A stretch of 5,573 bases of DNA from a virus (lineage: Duplodnaviria; Heunggongvirae; Uroviricota; Caudoviricetes), in IMG/VR virus record IMGVR_UViG_2526164693_000014. The stretch is one strand, 5' to 3'. Under the pieces are notes generated by a model. The model was not told the DNA's origin and searched no databases. It saw only the letters and a program-made list of their open reading frames with translations. The translations under genes and the position numbers were made by a program. Shown here piece after piece: positions 1 to 5,573 of this stretch (its first letter is position 1; every line of letters begins with the position of its first letter).

Positions 1-206
1 CGATCTACAGATTCCCCGAAACGCTTCTCCATAAATAATTCATAGGCTGCCCGTTCATCCGATACTGATGCCAGTGATGCCAGTGCAATTTTTAATGCGG
101 TAAGCATGTTGTTTTGATCTTCATCGAGTCCGAACGGTATTTCATCCCGTGATGACTCAATTCCGGTAATCGTGTTCTGTAGCCATTCTTTGGTTAATTC
201 AGTCAT
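1..206 (-). CDS. Hypothetical protein, 5'-partial in window (start inside, continues past the left edge)
   Basis: Hand translation from ATG at 206..204 gives MTELTKEWLQNTITGIESSRDEIPFGLDEDQNNMLTALKIALASLASVSDERAAYELFMEKRFGESVD with no stop before the edge; an in-frame TGA lies two codons upstream of the ATG. Not in the ORF track because it has no stop in the window. No family recognised. Confidence 0.5.
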   Translation of the reverse strand, partial: MTELTKEWLQNTITGIESSRDEIPFGLDEDQNNMLTALKIALASLASVSDERAAYELFMEKRFGESVD

Positions 207-332: not shown

Positions 333-644
333 TTATGCTTCGGCCTTATTTCTCAGCCATACACAAACAGGACCATCTTCGGTGTCATGTATCGAACCGA
401 TAAACCATCCCTCACCTTCTGGTCGCTCAGGTTCCCATGCTGAAATATCAGGGCCATCTGCGTCCAGATTAAAATCATCTTCATCCATACTACGGATAGC
501 CCACTGAAGATTATTTTTCTCCATCCAGGCGTTAAACTCTTCCGTTGAAATATATTCCCGACCATCACAGAATTTTTCATATTCAGGATGCGTCCAGCAG
601 CCATATTCATTACGTTCCACTGGCATTTCTTTAATTACGCTCAT
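333..644 (-). CDS. Hypothetical small acidic protein (103 aa), prophage accessory gene
   Basis: ORF-track ORF; AAGGGGGG Shine-Dalgarno-like motif upstream of the ATG at 644; start overlaps the stop of the upstream gene (ATGA). No family recognised. Confidence 0.6.
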   Translation of the reverse strand: MSVIKEMPVERNEYGCWTHPEYEKFCDGREYISTEEFNAWMEKNNLQWAIRSMDEDDFNLDADGPDISAWEPERPEGEGWFIGSIHDTEDGPVCVWLRNKAEA

Positions 645-829
645 TTACCCCCCTTATTTAATTTTCTACGACACTTTTTACAATCATCTGGACTTTCGAA
701 TGTATCCGGCTCACGCTCATTGCCAAAATACATCCACCCACCGCAAATACTTGTTATTTCACCTTCAGCAAAATAATGATGTTTTTTCGCCATAAGTGGC
801 CTTGCCCAGCCCGGATTCGTTTTACTCAC
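641..829 (-). CDS. Hypothetical small Cys-containing protein (62 aa), GTG start
   Basis: GTG at 829 overlaps the upstream stop (GTGA) and is preceded by AAGGAGG with about a 6-nt spacer; an alternative ATG at 793 has no RBS. Cys pattern SICGG...DCKKC could be a small zinc-binding motif (inference). Confidence 0.5.
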   Translation of the reverse strand: MSKTNPGWARPLMAKKHHYFAEGEITSICGGWMYFGNEREPDTFESPDDCKKCRRKLNKGGK

Positions 830-1182
830 TTGTTGCCTCCTTTGCGAAGCTCTGCGACTAACTCGTCACATATGTGCGTCAAAGAGCAAAGTTTGATTGC
901 TGGATGTTCGCGCACCATCTCCACACCCTGCGCCCGCAATTCTGCCAGAAAAGCGTAGGGGTCAGTTTTTTCACTGTGGTACATGGCATCATAGATAATC
1001 ATTGCAGCGACACCTGCCTGTCCTGCATCTGTGACGGATATATGCTCAAGGGCTACGGCCATTGCGTGTTTCAACCTCTCATTTTCCACCTCAAGCACCA
1101 CACGATTAGCCTCCAGCTCTTCTATGCGTTTTTTTGCTGCTCCCAGCTCAACACGCAGCTCCTGATAGTTAATCTCGCTCAT
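826..1182 (-). CDS. Hypothetical protein (118 aa) with a predicted N-terminal coiled coil
   Basis: ORF-track ORF; strong RBS (GGGAGGAAGGAGA) upstream of the ATG at 1182; ATGA overlap with the upstream gene; N-terminal heptad-like ELRVELGAAKKRIEELEANRVVLEVENERLK. Confidence 0.6.
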   Translation of the reverse strand: MSEINYQELRVELGAAKKRIEELEANRVVLEVENERLKHAMAVALEHISVTDAGQAGVAAMIIYDAMYHSEKTDPYAFLAELRAQGVEMVREHPAIKLCSLTHICDELVAELRKGGNK

Positions 1183-1403
1183 TCTCCTTCCTCCCGCACT
1201 GCTGTTTTATATGCCCGAAGCACATGCGATGTTTTTCCTGACACAGTGCTTCTCAGAAAGAAAATTCCACTGGTGTTTATTACCAGATACGGGTCAGCAA
1301 GACGCAGCATATCCAGTATGTGATTATGTTTTCTTGTTTCCAGCACCGTACTTGAAATAAGCATATGTGACACGGGGCCGAAATCATGATATCTGATTTT
1401 CAT
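1179..1403 (-). CDS. Hypothetical protein (74 aa)
   Basis: ORF-track ORF; AGGGTGA-like RBS upstream of the ATG at 1403; first of four translationally coupled small genes. No family recognised. Confidence 0.45.
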   Translation of the reverse strand: MKIRYHDFGPVSHMLISSTVLETRKHNHILDMLRLADPYLVINTSGIFFLRSTVSGKTSHVLRAYKTAVREEGE

Positions 1404-1424: not shown

Positions 1425-2123
1425 TTACCCGTTATCTCCTGTCGTTATTTTCTGTATGACATCACGATGCTTATTAATTTCCCGCAGCGCGGCGCATAAG
1501 CGCTCCCACTTCTGAACCTGACCTTTTGCCCGGCGCAGCTCGCGGTTAGCCACATGCAGCGATGGTAAAATCAGACCATCCGGATGCTTTCTGATGAACG
1601 ACGACTGTGACTGCACTGTGACCGCCACACTTTCAGTTTTAATTTCTTCCTGTGTTTCCGCTTCCCGGACTGGTAACGCAACACCTGCCGGCTGAGGAAA
1701 GGCTTTACCATCGGTTTCCGTTACCGATGCAGCTTTCGGCTCTGCCGGTAAATTATCGCCCGGTATGCAGTAACGATATTTACCGTCCTGATTTACGCGA
1801 ATCAGACGACCTTTGCTGACAGCCATCGCCAGTGATGAATTCGCCCGGCGGGAGGTAATCCCGAACATTAACGCCAGTTCGTCAGCCGACTGAGGACCAT
1901 GCTGTTCAATCGCGTTAATCAGCATCTCTGCAGTGGTTTTTGGGGCCGCTTCAGTTGCCTCACTCGTCAGCCACCACATCGACCCCTTGTTATCAGCTTC
2001 GCCACGACGCTTCAGCTTCCAGAGTTCGGTAACAGCATCGTCACGGCTGATTTCAAGACGGGCTGCAATCTCGTGCGACGAGGCTTTTTTCAGTGCTTTC
2101 AGTGCGTCAAAAACGGTTTCCAT
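1425..2123 (-). CDS. Hypothetical prophage protein (232 aa) with two winged-helix-like segments
   Basis: Track ORF is 1425..2189, but the ATG at 2123 has a GGAGG RBS about 6 nt upstream (ccgggaggaaaatttaATG) and avoids overlap with the P-like gene. Two segments resemble each other and wHTH folds (inference). Confidence 0.6.
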
Positions 2124-2157
2124 TAAATTTTCCTCCCGGTAAAAATTACTTCTCAAC

Positions 2158-2823
2158 TCAGACAAAACCGGCCGCCTTCCGGCGCTCATATTCCTGTTTC
2201 AGCAATTCAATTGGCGTTGGCCCTGGCGGGCGTTTGGGTGCTGCCAGTTGTCGCCGGACTGGCGGAACACTGAGGCCATTACCAACATGCTTTGCCCATT
2301 TCGTCAGTTGCCGTTCTGCAAGCCGTTTTAATTCCCCTTCGGTCATCTGGCGCTCAATCCCCTTTGAACGCATCTCGAGGCAAATGTGATACAGCACAGG
2401 CTGAGACCACGGGTACTTATCACTTCCGTCGTATCGCCAGGACTCATTGCGCCAGCGGCGGTACTCCTCCATCACAGCATCCACCGTCAGACCGAATGGA
2501 TTGGCTCCGCTTTTCGAAATCAGTGCCACAAACTCAGCCAGGTCCGGAGGCCATGTTTCACCCGCCCGGCAGCGGTCCATGCACTGGCGGCAGACCTGCC
2601 GGATTTGCTGCTCAGTCATCGCGCCAATCTGTGCAATCCAGAGCTTCGAAGGTGCGGCCCCGTTCTTCTGGATCCAGCGGTTCGAATAAACCACCCCCAT
2701 GAGTTCCCACAGCTTCCAGGCCGTTTCCGTCGCTGATAAATCCGTTTTCACGTTCCCACTGCTCACGTGCTGCCCGAATTTCCTGAACTGCCCGTGATGC
2801 GGTGCCACCTGGTGCTGCTGCAT
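2158..2823 (-). CDS. Phage replication protein P-like (lambda P family, DnaB helicase loader)
   Basis: Recalled similarity to lambda P: [18 protein letters not shown]...[13 protein letters not shown] here versus lambda ESYPWKSNAHYWLVTNLYQNMR...TDAELRRKAADEL, plus an upstream MTEQQ segment. The ATG at 2823 has an AAGGGG RBS with 6-nt spacer but overlaps the O-like gene by 212 bp out of frame; in-frame ATGs at 2700 and 2619 are alternative starts. Confidence 0.75.
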
Positions 2824-3652
2824 GGTTTACCCCTTTGCTGACTGGTTTAACCTGCGCCCTGACGTGATTTACGTGACGGGCGAATTTCTGCTCCCACTGA
2901 ATCTGCGTAAACACTTTCCCCTCCGCTGCCCAGTAGTCCCGGAAGGCGGCAAGTTCAGCAGGTGTAAATTCTGTCTCCGGCAAAGCCATCCCCCACAACG
3001 CAGCCCGTCGTCGAAAATCCCGTGACGGATACCAGCTATCGCTCATCGGGAATTTTCCGATGGGTTCGCTCAGGCCATACAGGAATACAGGGGGGGCTGC
3101 CTGTAACGACAAAACTTCCTGCTCACTGGTCGGAGCACTCTCGCGTGCGTTATGTGTGGGGTTTAGATCTTTGGGTTCCTTTGGGTTCCGTGATCCGTTT
3201 TTGGGTGTCTTTGATGGAAAATTTGGGTGTCTTTGGTTATTTTCCATGCAGCTAAGAGTTCTGTTTTTGGGTCTGTTTTGTGCTGAAACATAACCATTTT
3301 CGGTACTGTTTTTATTAACAGCACCAATTTTACCCACCTTTAAAGACTCCCGTTTTTGGGTGTATTCAGGCTCGGCAACACTTTCTTCTACACCGATAAG
3401 TCGGTACACCACAATTTGCTTTGTTCTGCCTTTTCTCTCACCGGTATCAACAATTAACCCAATCTCCATCAGGTGTCGTAAGCTGTCCTGCACAGTCTTT
3501 TTGTTCAGTTCCGTTACTTCTGCCAGTGCAGATACAGACGGGTATGCACACAAATCGGCACCGCACATATCAGCAAGCCAGGTCAATACTGACTTACTGG
3601 ATGAACTGCCGGTTTTCACCTTTTTAGCCCATCGTAGTGCATCGATACTCAT
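2612..3652 (-). CDS. Replication initiator, lambda O-like: N-terminal HTH DNA-binding domain, low-complexity linker, C-terminal DnaT-like domain
   Basis: C-terminal region GKFPMSDSWYPSRDFRRRAALWGMALPETEFTPAELAAFRDYWAAEGKVFTQIQWEQKFARHV closely matches the E. coli DnaT C-terminal region as I recall it. Start set at ATG 3652 (MSIDALRWAKK..., G-rich RBS); the track's 3727 start would overlap the upstream gene further. Confidence 0.8.
   Translation of the reverse strand: MSIDALRWAKKVKTGSSSSKSVLTWLADMCGADLCAYPSVSALAEVTELNKKTVQDSLRHLMEIGLIVDTGERKGRTKQIVVYRLIGVEESVAEPEYTQKRESLKVGKIGAVNKNSTENGYVSAQNRPKNRTLSCMENNQRHPNFPSKTPKNGSRNPKEPKDLNPTHNARESAPTSEQEVLSLQAAPPVFLYGLSEPIGKFPMSDSWYPSRDFRRRAALWGMALPETEFTPAELAAFRDYWAAEGKVFTQIQWEQKFARHVNHVRAQVKPVSKGVNHAAAPGGTASRAVQEIRAAREQWERENGFISDGNGLEAVGTHGGGLFEPLDPEERGRTFEALDCTDWRDD
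3170..3365. repeat. Candidate origin of replication: iteron-like direct repeats (core TTTGGGT) with an adjacent AT-rich tract, inside the O-like linker
   Basis: Seen directly: tandem TTTGGGTTCC at 3170..3189; TTTGGGTGTCTTTG at 3200..3213 and again at 3222..3235 (22-bp register); TTTGGGTCTGTTTTG at 3266..3280; TTTGGGTGT at 3355..3363; AT-rich stretch about 3285..3340. Lambda ori is likewise iterons plus an AT-rich region inside O. Confidence 0.6.
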
Positions 3653-4175
3653 ACGCCCCCCTGGCAGACATTTGTTTATCTGCAAAGTAATATTGGTATT
3701 GCTGACGATACGCGTGCTTGAAAGCAATAGCTTTTTCTATAAGCTCGTCAGTCTCACGTTCCACAACAACTGGATCCGCAAAAAGCAGCCCGGACTCCAC
3801 CACATCGCCATATTCTTTGTTTAACCCGGCGATCATGTACGTAATGCTTTTTCCGTCAGTAATTTCACAATACAATCTGAAATCGCTGATCCGGATAGCC
3901 TCCATAATTGCCGGAATCAGCGCCGTGAATTTGTCACGCTTATCTCTGGTGTCGATAGCTTTCCAGCGTTCGAATATCTTCACCCGGTTAACGCCCAGCG
4001 CCCGTTGATCAACCTCGCCATCATTAAACGTGACGCGTTGAACATCGATGTTCGGGCGTTCTTTCAGAGCCCAGAATGCTTCCGTGATTAATATCGTCGC
4101 CTGCTCCTGTGTCATTCCTGGTCGGCATACCCAGGTATCCAGAGCCTCACAAACCTGTTCAGTGGTGATTTTCAT
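3624..4175 (-). CDS. YdaT-like protein in the cII position (183 aa)
   Basis: Sits between the Cro-like and O-like genes. The segment FTALIPAIMEAIRISDFRLYCEI resembles the Rac-prophage YdaT segment as I recall it; this is from memory and unverified. Overlaps the Cro-like gene by 17 bp and the O-like gene by 29 bp. Confidence 0.65.
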   Translation of the reverse strand: MKITTEQVCEALDTWVCRPGMTQEQATILITEAFWALKERPNIDVQRVTFNDGEVDQRALGVNRVKIFERWKAIDTRDKRDKFTALIPAIMEAIRISDFRLYCEITDGKSITYMIAGLNKEYGDVVESGLLFADPVVVERETDELIEKAIAFKHAYRQQYQYYFADKQMSARGAYEYRCTTMG

Positions 4176-4386
4176 TGTTCAACCGCCCCGCCCGCTTTGC
4201 CTTACGATATTCGTCATAAACTTTGGGGTCGTACTGAAGTTCCCCGCCGGATGCCTCTTGCAGGCGCATCGCGCGACCTTCAGGAACCAGTTCCCCCCAT
4301 GCAGCAACGCTTGCCAGCCTAACTCCTGCGACATTGGCAAGCTTTGTTTTGCTGCCAAAAAACGCTATAGCATCAATTTTCAACAT
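4159..4386 (-). CDS. Cro-like small DNA-binding regulator (YdaS/DicC-like, 75 aa)
   Basis: Divergent from the repressor gene across a 76-bp operator region; the pattern AGVRLASVAAWGELVPEGRAMRLQEASGGELQYDP fits the Cro/YdaS-type fold family; first gene of the leftward operon. Confidence 0.75.
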   Translation of the reverse strand: MLKIDAIAFFGSKTKLANVAGVRLASVAAWGELVPEGRAMRLQEASGGELQYDPKVYDEYRKAKRAGRLNNENHH

Positions 4387-4462
4387 ATCGAAACCCTTAG
4401 ATTTTCCTAAGGAAACTAGATCGTAGAGAAACCTAAGTCAAGAAAAATTAGAATTACCTAAT
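4387..4462. promoter_or_regulatory. Divergent operator/promoter region (OR-like) between the Cro-like and repressor genes
   Basis: Perfect inverted repeat CCTTAG-N6-CTAAGG at 4395..4412 and a third half-site CCTAAG at 4432..4437. Plus strand: -10-like TAGAAT at 4449..4454 only 8 nt before the repressor ATG, with no SD. Minus strand: TTGACT (-35) at 4441..4436 with a weak -10. Confidence 0.6.
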
Positions 4463-4870
4463 ATGAAAAACGAAACCTTCGGTGCTCGCCTCTTATACAG
4501 GCGAAAAAAATTAAAACTGTCTCAGGCCGCATTAGGTAAGCTGGTCAAAGTCGCTCACGTAACAATTTCTCAATGGGAAAGAGATGAAACACAGCCAGCG
4601 GGGAAGAGATTATTCGCACTGAGCCAGGCGCTTCAGTGCTCGCCGACTTGGCTTCTTTTTGGAGATGAAGATAAGCAACCAGGCGAACCGATCCCAGATA
4701 ATCAGCCAGTCAATCTGACAGAAGATCAAAAAGAGTTGCTTCAACTGTTCGACGCACTGCCTGAGTCAGAGCAAAAGGCTCTGTTGTCAGAGATGCGTGC
4801 TCGAGTTGAGAATTTCAACAAACTTTTTGAAGAACTACTCAAAGCTCGCAAAAGAAGCGCAAATAAATAA
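4463..4870 (+). CDS. dicA: Prophage immunity repressor, DicA-type HTH_XRE regulator (135 aa, cI functional analogue, no S24 peptidase domain)
   Basis: N-terminal HTH (LSQAALGKLVKVAHVTISQWERDETQP); CSPTWLLFGDEDKQP and the C-terminal NFNKLFEELLKAR tail match my recollection of E. coli Qin DicA; same length; divergent from a Cro-like gene. The symbol means DicA-family homologue, not necessarily the K-12 locus. Confidence 0.85.
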   Translation: MKNETFGARLLYRRKKLKLSQAALGKLVKVAHVTISQWERDETQPAGKRLFALSQALQCSPTWLLFGDEDKQPGEPIPDNQPVNLTEDQKELLQLFDALPESEQKALLSEMRARVENFNKLFEELLKARKRSANK

Positions 4871-4900
4871 CCCCCCTTTTTTTCGCAACTCTCTGTAATA

Positions 4901-4933
4901 AAAAGCACAAACTTTCAAATACTTGTGTTTTTT
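4901..4933 (+). terminator. Weak candidate intrinsic terminator downstream of the repressor gene
   Basis: Short stem GCACAA/TTGTG with a 12-nt loop followed by a T6 run, flanked upstream by an A-tract. The stem is short and AU-rich, so this is tentative. Confidence 0.3.
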
Positions 4934-4941
4934 ACATCAAG

Positions 4942-4998
4942 AAGCTTAGGTTTTTCTACACAAAAAGCTTGACCATAACTCTTAGGCTATTCTAAATT
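4942..4998 (+). promoter_or_regulatory. pL-like rightward promoter candidate with operator-like half-sites (OL-like)
   Basis: TTGACC at 4969..4974, then a 17-18-nt spacer and CTAAAT/TAAATT at 4992..4998. CTTAGG half-sites at 4945..4950 and 4982..4987, the second inside the spacer; same motif as in the OR-like region. Confidence 0.45.
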
Positions 4999-5133
4999 CT
5001 ACTCATCAAGACACCGCACGGTGTTCTCAGCAAACAGTTCCGCTACCCGGCGTTAAGGGGAAGCAGAGGATTTCTCAGTGGGCGAGTCAAACATCAGAAT
5101 GGAAGGCGTCCAGGGATCAGCAAAGAAACAGCG

Positions 5134-5433
5134 ATGGCGCTTTATATTGATATCAGCGCCATTGCCGGACAGGTAAGAGTTATCAGAGCGGTAACTAAGC
5201 GGTATGCGCCTTTACTTCAGAAAGTCTCTGGTGAGTGCACCGAAGATATTGTCAACGATTTCGTCATCGAACTGCGAGGACTCATCTTCAGTTACAAGGT
5301 GACCACAATTTTTGCAGATGGCTCCCGCGAAACTGTCAGAGCCCTGCGGCTTAAAGGATGTGTCAAAGACTTAGCCACCACATTCTGGGCAAGAAAACTT
5401 GATTGTATTCATAACCAATTTCCTCTCGAGTAA
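5134..5433 (+). CDS. Hypothetical protein (99 aa), first long ORF downstream of the pL-like promoter; coding status uncertain
   Basis: Only ORF of 60 aa or more on either strand in 4871..5505; weak RBS (AAGAAACAGCG); several rare AGA/GGA/CGA codons; no N-like arginine-rich motif; no family recognised. Confidence 0.4.
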   Translation: MALYIDISAIAGQVRVIRAVTKRYAPLLQKVSGECTEDIVNDFVIELRGLIFSYKVTTIFADGSRETVRALRLKGCVKDLATTFWARKLDCIHNQFPLE

Positions 5434-5505
5434 CAGACCCCTCAGAGGATACCACCTCGCCTGACGTGGTTAAAAAGCAGGCAACGCTAACCACAAGGAG
5501 CCGAC

Positions 5506-5573
5506 ATGCAGAAACGAGACCCCGTCATCATCGCGCCAGACTATACCGATGATGAACTTTATGAGTGGATGCA
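5506..5573 (+). CDS. Hypothetical protein, 3'-partial in window (start only: MQKRDPVIIAPDYTDDELYEWM...)
   Basis: ATG at 5506 preceded by AAGGAG with a 5-nt spacer; open to the right edge. Function unknown. Confidence 0.5.
   Translation, partial: MQKRDPVIIAPDYTDDELYEWM

Follow-up and report, generated by a model that had tools for sequence, protein, structure and literature searches.

Four small overlapping genes in the nin-equivalent region of an Escherichia coli O157:H7 lambdoid prophage are conserved and are probably independent accessory genes

In this work we analysed four small open reading frames (ORFs), called here genes A to D, that lie at positions 333–1403 of a 5573-nucleotide (nt) stretch of tailed-phage DNA (IMG/VR record IMGVR_UViG_2526164693_000014; "the window" below means this whole stretch). 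The window covers the segment for immunity and replication of a lambdoid prophage of the Rac/PPompW type, from Escherichia coli O157:H7. The analysis indicates, with good confidence, that A to D are four real and mutually unrelated accessory genes that shuffle independently among phages and that lie here head-to-tail in a delayed-early operon (cro, a cII/YdaT-like gene, an O-like gene, P, a DUF1627 gene, then A to D). All four proteins are conserved and already catalogued as conserved hypothetical families, and the set they form is mosaic. The genes are as follows, lengths being given in amino acids (aa).

Gene A: 1403–1179, minus strand, ATG start, 74 aa, family phrog_1001
Gene B: 1182–826, minus strand, ATG start, 118 aa, short Ead/Ea22-type protein ("eae-like")
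Gene C: 829–641, minus strand, GTG start, 62 aa, family phrog_2358
Gene D: 644–333, minus strand, ATG start, 103 aa, family phrog_1372

Results and discussion

Conservation of the four genes

All four proteins match PHROG families of unknown function: A matches phrog_1001 (E=9e-24), B matches phrog_492 (E=7e-24) and phrog_368 (E=4e-19), C matches phrog_2358 (E=1e-31) and D matches phrog_1372 (E=4e-55). Homologues were found by tblastn in 102 phage records for A, 17 for B, 34 for C and 83 for D. Comparison of D with ten homologues gave ratios of nonsynonymous to synonymous substitution rates (dN/dS) of 0.05–0.14, and in three in-register comparisons of C (with loci L104, L117 and L122) the proportion of nonsynonymous differences (pN) was 0.13–0.22 at a proportion of synonymous differences (pS) of about 0.75–0.81, that is with synonymous sites saturated; D and C are thus under purifying selection. 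Proteins identical to A, B, C and D are encoded on public contigs, in numbers from 699 to more than 1000, under the names hypothetical protein, "eae-like protein" (for B) or "prophage protein" (for D), and a search of the literature with locus tags, WP accessions and PHROG numbers returned nothing on them.

These data bear directly on whether any or all of the ORFs are chance open frames in non-coding DNA that have been annotated in error, a suspicion that could be nourished by their shortness, by the lack of a Pfam or NCBIfam family, by their annotation as hypothetical proteins only, and by the presence of an antisense ORF over part of the region. The PHROG matches of all four proteins, protein-level conservation that reaches other genera, the substitution patterns of D and C and the presence of Shine-Dalgarno motifs at the correct spacing refute this explanation, whose probability we regard as negligible. 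The original prediction had named as its own refutation that the ORFs might turn out to be unconserved and spurious; since they are conserved real genes, and the PHROG matches, the tblastn spread and purifying selection all speak otherwise, that refutation fails. The antisense ORF (149 aa, 874–1323, plus strand, opposite A and B) is probably a shadow ORF produced by the conserved genes on the minus strand.

Gene layout and independent shuffling

All four ORFs use the minus strand as coding strand, a point on which the original prediction was silent; its description of four ORFs of 74, 118, 62 and 103 aa chained by ATGA, GTGA and ATGA agrees with the sequence in both coordinates and junctions. 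Read from the reverse strand, the A stop and B start share ATGA at 1182–1179, the B stop and C start share GTGA at 829–826, and the C stop and D start share ATGA at 644–641. These 4-nt overlaps allow translational coupling. Among overlapping genes in operons of bacteria and phages, this 4-base start/stop type is the most frequent, and it is unremarkable alone. It had also been proposed that each gene has its own Shine-Dalgarno motif, which holds for B (GGAGGAAGGAG), C (AAGGAGG) and D (AAGGGGGG), where the motif is strong and purine-rich, but less well for A, which starts 21 nt past the stop of the DUF1627 gene and is preceded by a weak AGGGTG.

The question of whether the chain of genes is a unit was addressed with 129 IMG/VR loci (L009–L137) around D and C homologues, which were searched with all window proteins. 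A, B, C and D were found together only where C and D are 97–100% identical, which corresponds to a single prophage lineage. Where D is at most 90% identical, C is also present at one locus of 64; where C is at most 80% identical, D is present at one of about 33, namely L113, in which a diverged C (73%) and a diverged D (65% identity) are adjacent. Other loci carry other subsets: C and D are present and A and B absent in L031, a 54%-identical B accompanies C and D in L024, from which A is absent, and an A-like gene is the immediate neighbour of D in L071, L075, L076 and L081. In Rac-SA53 and mEp460 the gene preceding D encodes an unrelated 84-aa protein, and in mEp460 the D gene lies in the early-left "ea" region. 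Homologues of A adjoin xis/int in Shiga-toxin (Stx) phages, in Fels-1 and in Klebsiella phages. Across other phages, A-, B-, C- and D-type genes are thus found both in P-to-Q regions and in exo-xis/int-proximal early-left regions. Because the homologues have such shuffled neighbours, we interpret the overlaps between A, B, C and D as the usual tight packing of phage early operons, and not as the mark of a dedicated four-protein machine.

The opposite interpretation would be that A to D form a dedicated multi-component module (for anti-defence, host takeover or a toxin–antitoxin-like function), the overlaps enforcing stoichiometric co-expression. The three successive 4-nt overlaps, each followed by a gene with its own Shine-Dalgarno motif, are what one would expect of such a module, as are the 100% conservation of the whole set in 338 complete E. 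coli genomes and the adjacency of C and D in a few diverged loci (L113, L031 and L024). However, the 338 identical copies represent one O157 prophage lineage, and therefore provide no independent conservation. Co-occurrence is lost on divergence: the other three genes are absent from most loci where D is no more than 90% identical, and likewise from most of those where C is no more than 80% identical. In addition, the D family extends widely into phages of Burkholderia, Pseudomonas and Vibrio, in which C, the narrowest family, was not found, and the overlap itself is lost in close variants: in the relatives L017, L020, L024 and L031 the C gene stops shortly before the D start. Finally, neither A to D nor the gene downstream of them matched PADLOC-DB at E<=0.1. 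The co-occurrence data therefore disfavour a module, which we consider very improbable, and the "cassette" of the original prediction has to be given up as a functional unit, since its members stay together only in copies that are at least 97% identical and shuffle independently elsewhere.

Gene B, an Ead/Ea22-type protein

The original prediction described four unknown proteins, which remains appropriate for A, C and D, but B is recognizable as a short protein of the Ead/Ea22 type, a name that is not meant to imply functional equivalence. Its N-terminus, MSEINYQELR, is nearly identical to those of lambda Ea22 (MSEINSQALR) and of Rac-SA53 Ead (MSKINYQALR). It is followed by the coiled coil that had been noticed at the N-terminus of one of the proteins and that proves to be a clean five-heptad repeat (residues about 9–44), with L9, L13, A16, I20, L23, R27, L30, N34, L37, M41 and A44 in a/d positions. 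The C-terminal domain is distinct, and tblastn matches are piecewise, different domains matching different phages. B thus combines an MSxINxQxLR motif with a coiled coil and ends in a variable C-terminal domain, and database entries name it "eae-like protein" or "ead/Ea22-like family protein".

This architecture is that of lambda Ea22, in which a coiled coil links the N-terminal part to a C-terminal domain specific to the lineage (PMC7093339; PMC10834534), and B shares with Ea22 and with P22 Ead-Eae (PF13935) the N-terminal motif, the coiled coil, the lineage-specific C-terminal domain and significant matches to phrog_492 and phrog_368. It is much shorter (118 aa) than the lambda protein (182 aa) or that of Rac-SA53 (225 aa), and its C-terminal domain has no similarity to the solved C-terminal domain of lambda Ea22. 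Ea22 forms tetramers and, in lambda and phi24B, favours lysogeny (PMC10834534; PMC7093339). By analogy, B is likely to be an Ea22-like coiled-coil oligomer, which may bias the lysis–lysogeny decision via its variable C-terminal domain.

Gene C, a candidate zinc-binding protein

C is a basic protein (isoelectric point, pI, 9.2). In the family alignment (A2, 16 sequences) the residues H17, H18, C29, C50 and C53 are invariant, as is the motif REPDTFES-DDC, and a basic helix follows at the C-terminus. The cysteines had been assigned a C-X27-C-X2-C pattern, which is incorrect, the real spacing being C-X20-C-X2-C (C29, C50 and C53). C is the only one of the four proteins with a conserved His/Cys set, and H17/H18/C29/C50/C53 form a plausible candidate zinc site. 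No significant match to solved structures was obtained for C by sequence or profile; the best profile match, to the last CxxC knuckle of the RNF4 RING domain, is non-significant (E=0.11). A relationship to Kunitz/BPTI proteins was considered and rejected, as single-sequence matches in the Protein Data Bank (PDB; E~0.05) disappeared with the family profile, no Pfam Kunitz match was found, and C has three cysteines only. We propose that C is likely to be a small zinc-stabilized basic protein that would bind nucleic acid or protein.

The position of the C start codon deserves comment, as the RefSeq/PGAP version of the gene encodes 50 aa from an internal ATG (M13). The homologues, which belong to temperate and to virulent (Wifcevirus-type) coliphages, align from residues 2–7, residues 1–12 are conserved among them, and they start at an equivalent ATG or GTG codon behind GGAGG. 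The 62-aa version with its GTG start is therefore the better call and is probably correct, and in consequence so is the GTGA overlap with B. Many of the database entries of gene C are probably truncated at the N-terminus.

Gene D, a widespread acidic family

D has a net charge of -16 and a pI of 4.2, and the net charge ranges from -9 to -22 among 35 members of the family. Its structure is predicted with confidence (predicted local distance difference test score, pLDDT, 85; predicted template modelling score, pTM, 0.75) as a compact alpha/beta protein with two helices on a three-stranded sheet. D resembled no solved protein in sequence or fold, and in BFVD the model matches solely uncharacterized phage homologues. 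The invariant residues (G15, H19, W70, P75, W80, F81, H86 and W96) form mostly an aromatic core or patch, whereas a loop at positions 53–70 varies in sequence and is always acidic. The scattered cysteines of this protein had also attracted attention: the spacing C16-X9-C26...C94 is indeed present, but C16 and C26 are unconserved and only C94 is nearly invariant in the family, so that there is no conserved metal site.

Homologues of D are found in phages of enterobacteria, Burkholderia, Pseudomonas, Vibrio and Yersinia, where the gene often has methylase, exonuclease or recombination genes nearby. The D domain also occurs within longer proteins: phi1026b gp46 (221 aa, L142 2773–3438), PY54 ORF48 (175 aa, L143 2998–3525), a protein of Serratia phage Parlo (250 aa, L005 2000–2752) and the 543-aa BFVD entry A0A345BR81. 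The extra regions are Pfam-negative in the Parlo protein and in the longer D-family clusters. As the PHROG profiles are longer than the proteins, C and D were also considered as parts of one split or fused gene; this idea was rejected, the extensions in P0021, P0062, P0081, P0104, P0107 and the Parlo protein being unrelated and not C. One of these, P0081, consists of the N-terminal half of D joined to an unrelated C-terminal sequence, a hybrid that suggests recombination inside the gene. D was also examined as a relative of DUF551 (PF04448), with which it shares a W...P...W pattern, and this candidate was discarded (hhalign probability 0.2%, no Pfam match).

These properties raise the question of what such a protein might bind. 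We propose that D is likely to act as a strongly acidic binder of the inhibitor type, and possibly as a DNA mimic directed against a host DNA-binding or defence protein. Its likeness to T7 Ocr, ArdA and Ugi concerns the mode of action only: D is small, early-expressed, carries a charge of about -16 over 103 residues and keeps its acidity while the loop varies. D differs from these proteins in that it has no sequence or fold similarity to solved proteins, and in that its conserved residues are mainly aromatic; in particular, no solved DNA-mimic anti-restriction protein of the Ocr/ArdA type was matched.

A more specific explanation would be that at least one of the four proteins, most plausibly D, is a counter-defence protein that, at an early stage of infection or induction, inhibits restriction or abortive infection by DNA mimicry or through sequestration of a DNA-binding protein. 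The uniformly high acidity of the family, including its variable surface loop, would suit this role, as would strong purifying selection combined with a spread over phages of many Proteobacteria, the location of the genes in early regions, often close to genes for DNA methylases, exonucleases and recombination proteins, and a compact fold without a solved relative. The last property has another side, since D resembles no solved anti-restriction protein, nor any other; moreover, acidity by itself is weak evidence, and the invariant residues make up an aromatic core or patch and no acidic array. For these reasons we consider a counter-defence role unlikely. A fuller version of the idea, in which D represents a widespread early phage family with a new compact alpha/beta fold and a strongly acidic, conserved surface that acts as an acidic counter-defence inhibitor (by mimicry or sequestration), C being a second, independent small effector, appears doubtful.

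Gene A, a small basic protein

A is basic (pI 9.6), as is its family, which has a median pI of 10 in alignment A3. The homologues in the 102 phage records mentioned above lie mostly in Stx phages, near int/xis; they reduce to 21 representatives when clustered at 50%, and their alignment has no conserved stretch. No Pfam, NCBIfam, PADLOC or PDB match to A was found, by sequence or by profile. The gene usually located upstream of A-family genes encodes a DNA-binding regulator of varying family: DUF1627 in E. coli and Stx phages, a Rha-family protein in Klebsiella phages and, two genes upstream, an ORF6N protein in Fels-1. The order DUF1627 then A is also seen in the Stx1 phage AU5Stx1 and in phage phi367. 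The loci comprising an A-family gene and its upstream regulator, in which the A-family gene is usually close to xis/int, are the following.

L003: 2968–3734
L141: 1959–2734
L139: 1789–2725
L140: 1804–2725
L004: 2870–3725

A conserved pair formed by A and DUF1627 was considered, and is valid in E. coli and Stx phages only: the Rha protein of Klebsiella phages has no similarity to DUF1627 and Fels-1 has ORF6N, so that the pairing is not homologous. Sequence similarity is lacking among all these upstream proteins. A could be a small basic partner or effector encoded downstream of genes for DNA-binding regulators.

Genomic context and the mosaic window

Upstream of A in the direction of transcription, the window carries the immunity and replication genes, and at its other end it carries the beginning of a fifth gene, E.

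DicA/CI-like repressor gene: 4463–4870, plus strand
Cro/DicC-like gene: 4386–4159, minus strand
YdaT/CII-like gene: 4175–3624, minus strand
Gene for a DnaT-domain O-like initiator: 3727–2612, minus strand
P gene: 2823–2158, minus strand
Gene for a DUF1627 (YdaW-like) winged-helix protein: 2189–1425, minus strand (PF07789, E=7e-79; phrog_630, E=1e-110)
Hairpin ACCGCCC-GAAA-GGGCGGU: 232–215, after GGAG at 236–233 (element 215–236), minus strand, in the 126-nt spacer 332–207 that follows D
Gene E, 5' part of a hypothetical gene that leaves the window (187 aa in full copies; full copy at 8444–9007 of L002): 1–206, minus strand

The DUF1627 gene lies directly upstream of A, in the position of ren after P, and its product has a weak Ren-like match to phrog_142 (E=3.5e-4). 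Gene E, for which Pfam, NCBIfam and PADLOC gave no match, is the gene after D in every near-identical copy. In O157:H7 strain PV15-279, which carries an identical copy of the four genes, the downstream genes encode the 187-aa hypothetical protein, HokD, a DUF968 protein, RusA and Q. Being downstream of the O-like, P and DUF1627 genes and upstream of hokD, DUF968, rusA and Q, genes A to D occupy the nin-equivalent region; the gene order on both flanks thus agrees with the earlier placement of these ORFs downstream of the replication genes, at the lambda nin/ren position.

Positions 200–1450 are at least 99% identical in 338 complete E. coli genomes and 100% identical to one O157:H7 prophage, while positions 1461–5573 are about 97% identical to another O157 prophage (PPompW type) of the same genomes. 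At least 80% of the window is found in one place in 1 of 5426 complete E. coli genomes, and the whole arrangement is present on IMG/VR contigs at about 100% identity. As its two parts match different prophages but occur joined on IMG/VR contigs, the window is a mosaic of natural origin, whose junction lies close to the 3' end of the DUF1627 gene (about 1450–1461). The GC content is 41–51% over the four genes (333–1403), with a minimum of 41–43% over C and D, compared with 52–59% over the replication genes (1500–3150), which fits a separate origin of the accessory genes.

In a simple consensus scan of positions 1–2300, promoter-like sites numbered 5 (2.9+/-1.9 expected by chance) and terminator-like sites 3 (2.1+/-1.8 by chance). 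Because the four genes are on one strand and no promoter or terminator signal above chance separates them, they are most simply read from an upstream early promoter. At the junction between P and the DUF1627 gene, approximately at the position of lambda tR2, a terminator-like hairpin with a U-rich tail was observed (2167–2183, minus strand), the count of such sites being within chance.

Rfam gave no match anywhere in the window. The spacer downstream of D holds the GNRA-loop hairpin listed above, which separates GGAG from the ATG of gene E (206) and ends 8 nt before it. The fold of positions 340–195 has a minimum free energy of -33.6 kcal/mol (z = -3.44), and none of 200 shuffled sequences was as good. 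This hairpin has no U-tract and is therefore no classical terminator; it might bring the Shine-Dalgarno motif and start codon together, or serve as a processing or stability element.

Comparison with lambda and weight of the evidence

Like the lambda nin region and ren, genes A to D form a series of small, overlapping genes flanked by the replication genes and by RusA/Q, and by analogy with the lambda nin genes they are presumably dispensable and N-antiterminated. The likeness does not extend to the proteins. In agreement with the original prediction, which had recognized neither Ren nor NinB nor similar proteins, A to D have no Pfam, PHROG or NCBIfam match to Ren, NinB, NinC, NinE, NinF, NinG or NinH, the weak Ren-like match being confined to the DUF1627 protein upstream. 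A second comparison is with the exo-xis or "ea" genes of lambda and Stx phages (orf60a, orf61, orf63 and Ea8.5), as homologues of A, B and D are located in the int/xis-proximal early-left region. Small early proteins of the exo-xis region are thought to tune the lysis–lysogeny decision (PMC7093339). A, C and D have no solved-structure match by sequence or profile, lambda Ea8.5, orf61 and orf63 not having been compared directly, and the zinc-type motif of C differs from the Ea8.5 type. We propose that A to D would be dispensable early modulators of the phage–host interaction, each acting alone and by binding a partner, not by catalysis. The original prediction had pointed to a possible action on host processes or host defences; such an action may apply here, but no match of the four proteins to known defence proteins or to solved structures was found.

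Several points weigh against this reading. The functions proposed for A to D are inferred. C and D may be loosely linked, given their adjacency in the diverged locus L113. For B, the match to PF13935 (18.1 bits, E=0.004), which involves only the final portion of the profile (positions 75–138), is below the 27-bit gathering cut-off, while in the same test lambda Ea22 scored 100.9 bits and Rac-SA53 Ead 94.8 bits; in addition, B is encoded in the rightward P-to-Q region, whereas Ea22 has been studied in the leftward exo-xis region. Zinc binding by C is argued from conservation, because the AlphaFold2 prediction for this protein is poor (pLDDT 50.7). For D, acidity is common among small phage proteins and is no proof of mimicry. 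Lastly, we infer transcription from an upstream early promoter from missing signals in a simple consensus scan.

Significance

Lambdoid phages normally carry a tightly packed series of small genes without known function between their replication genes and Q, and such a series raises no new question by itself. The finding that these genes are real, independently mobile and under purifying selection recommends them as a small set for functional screens. Among them D ranks first, owing to its broad distribution, its high acidity, its confident model and the lack of a solved relative, and C comes second, with its invariant His/Cys set and its homologues that are also present in virulent coliphages. 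Early accessory genes in E. coli O157:H7 prophages can affect prophage induction, and through it the biology of Shiga toxin.

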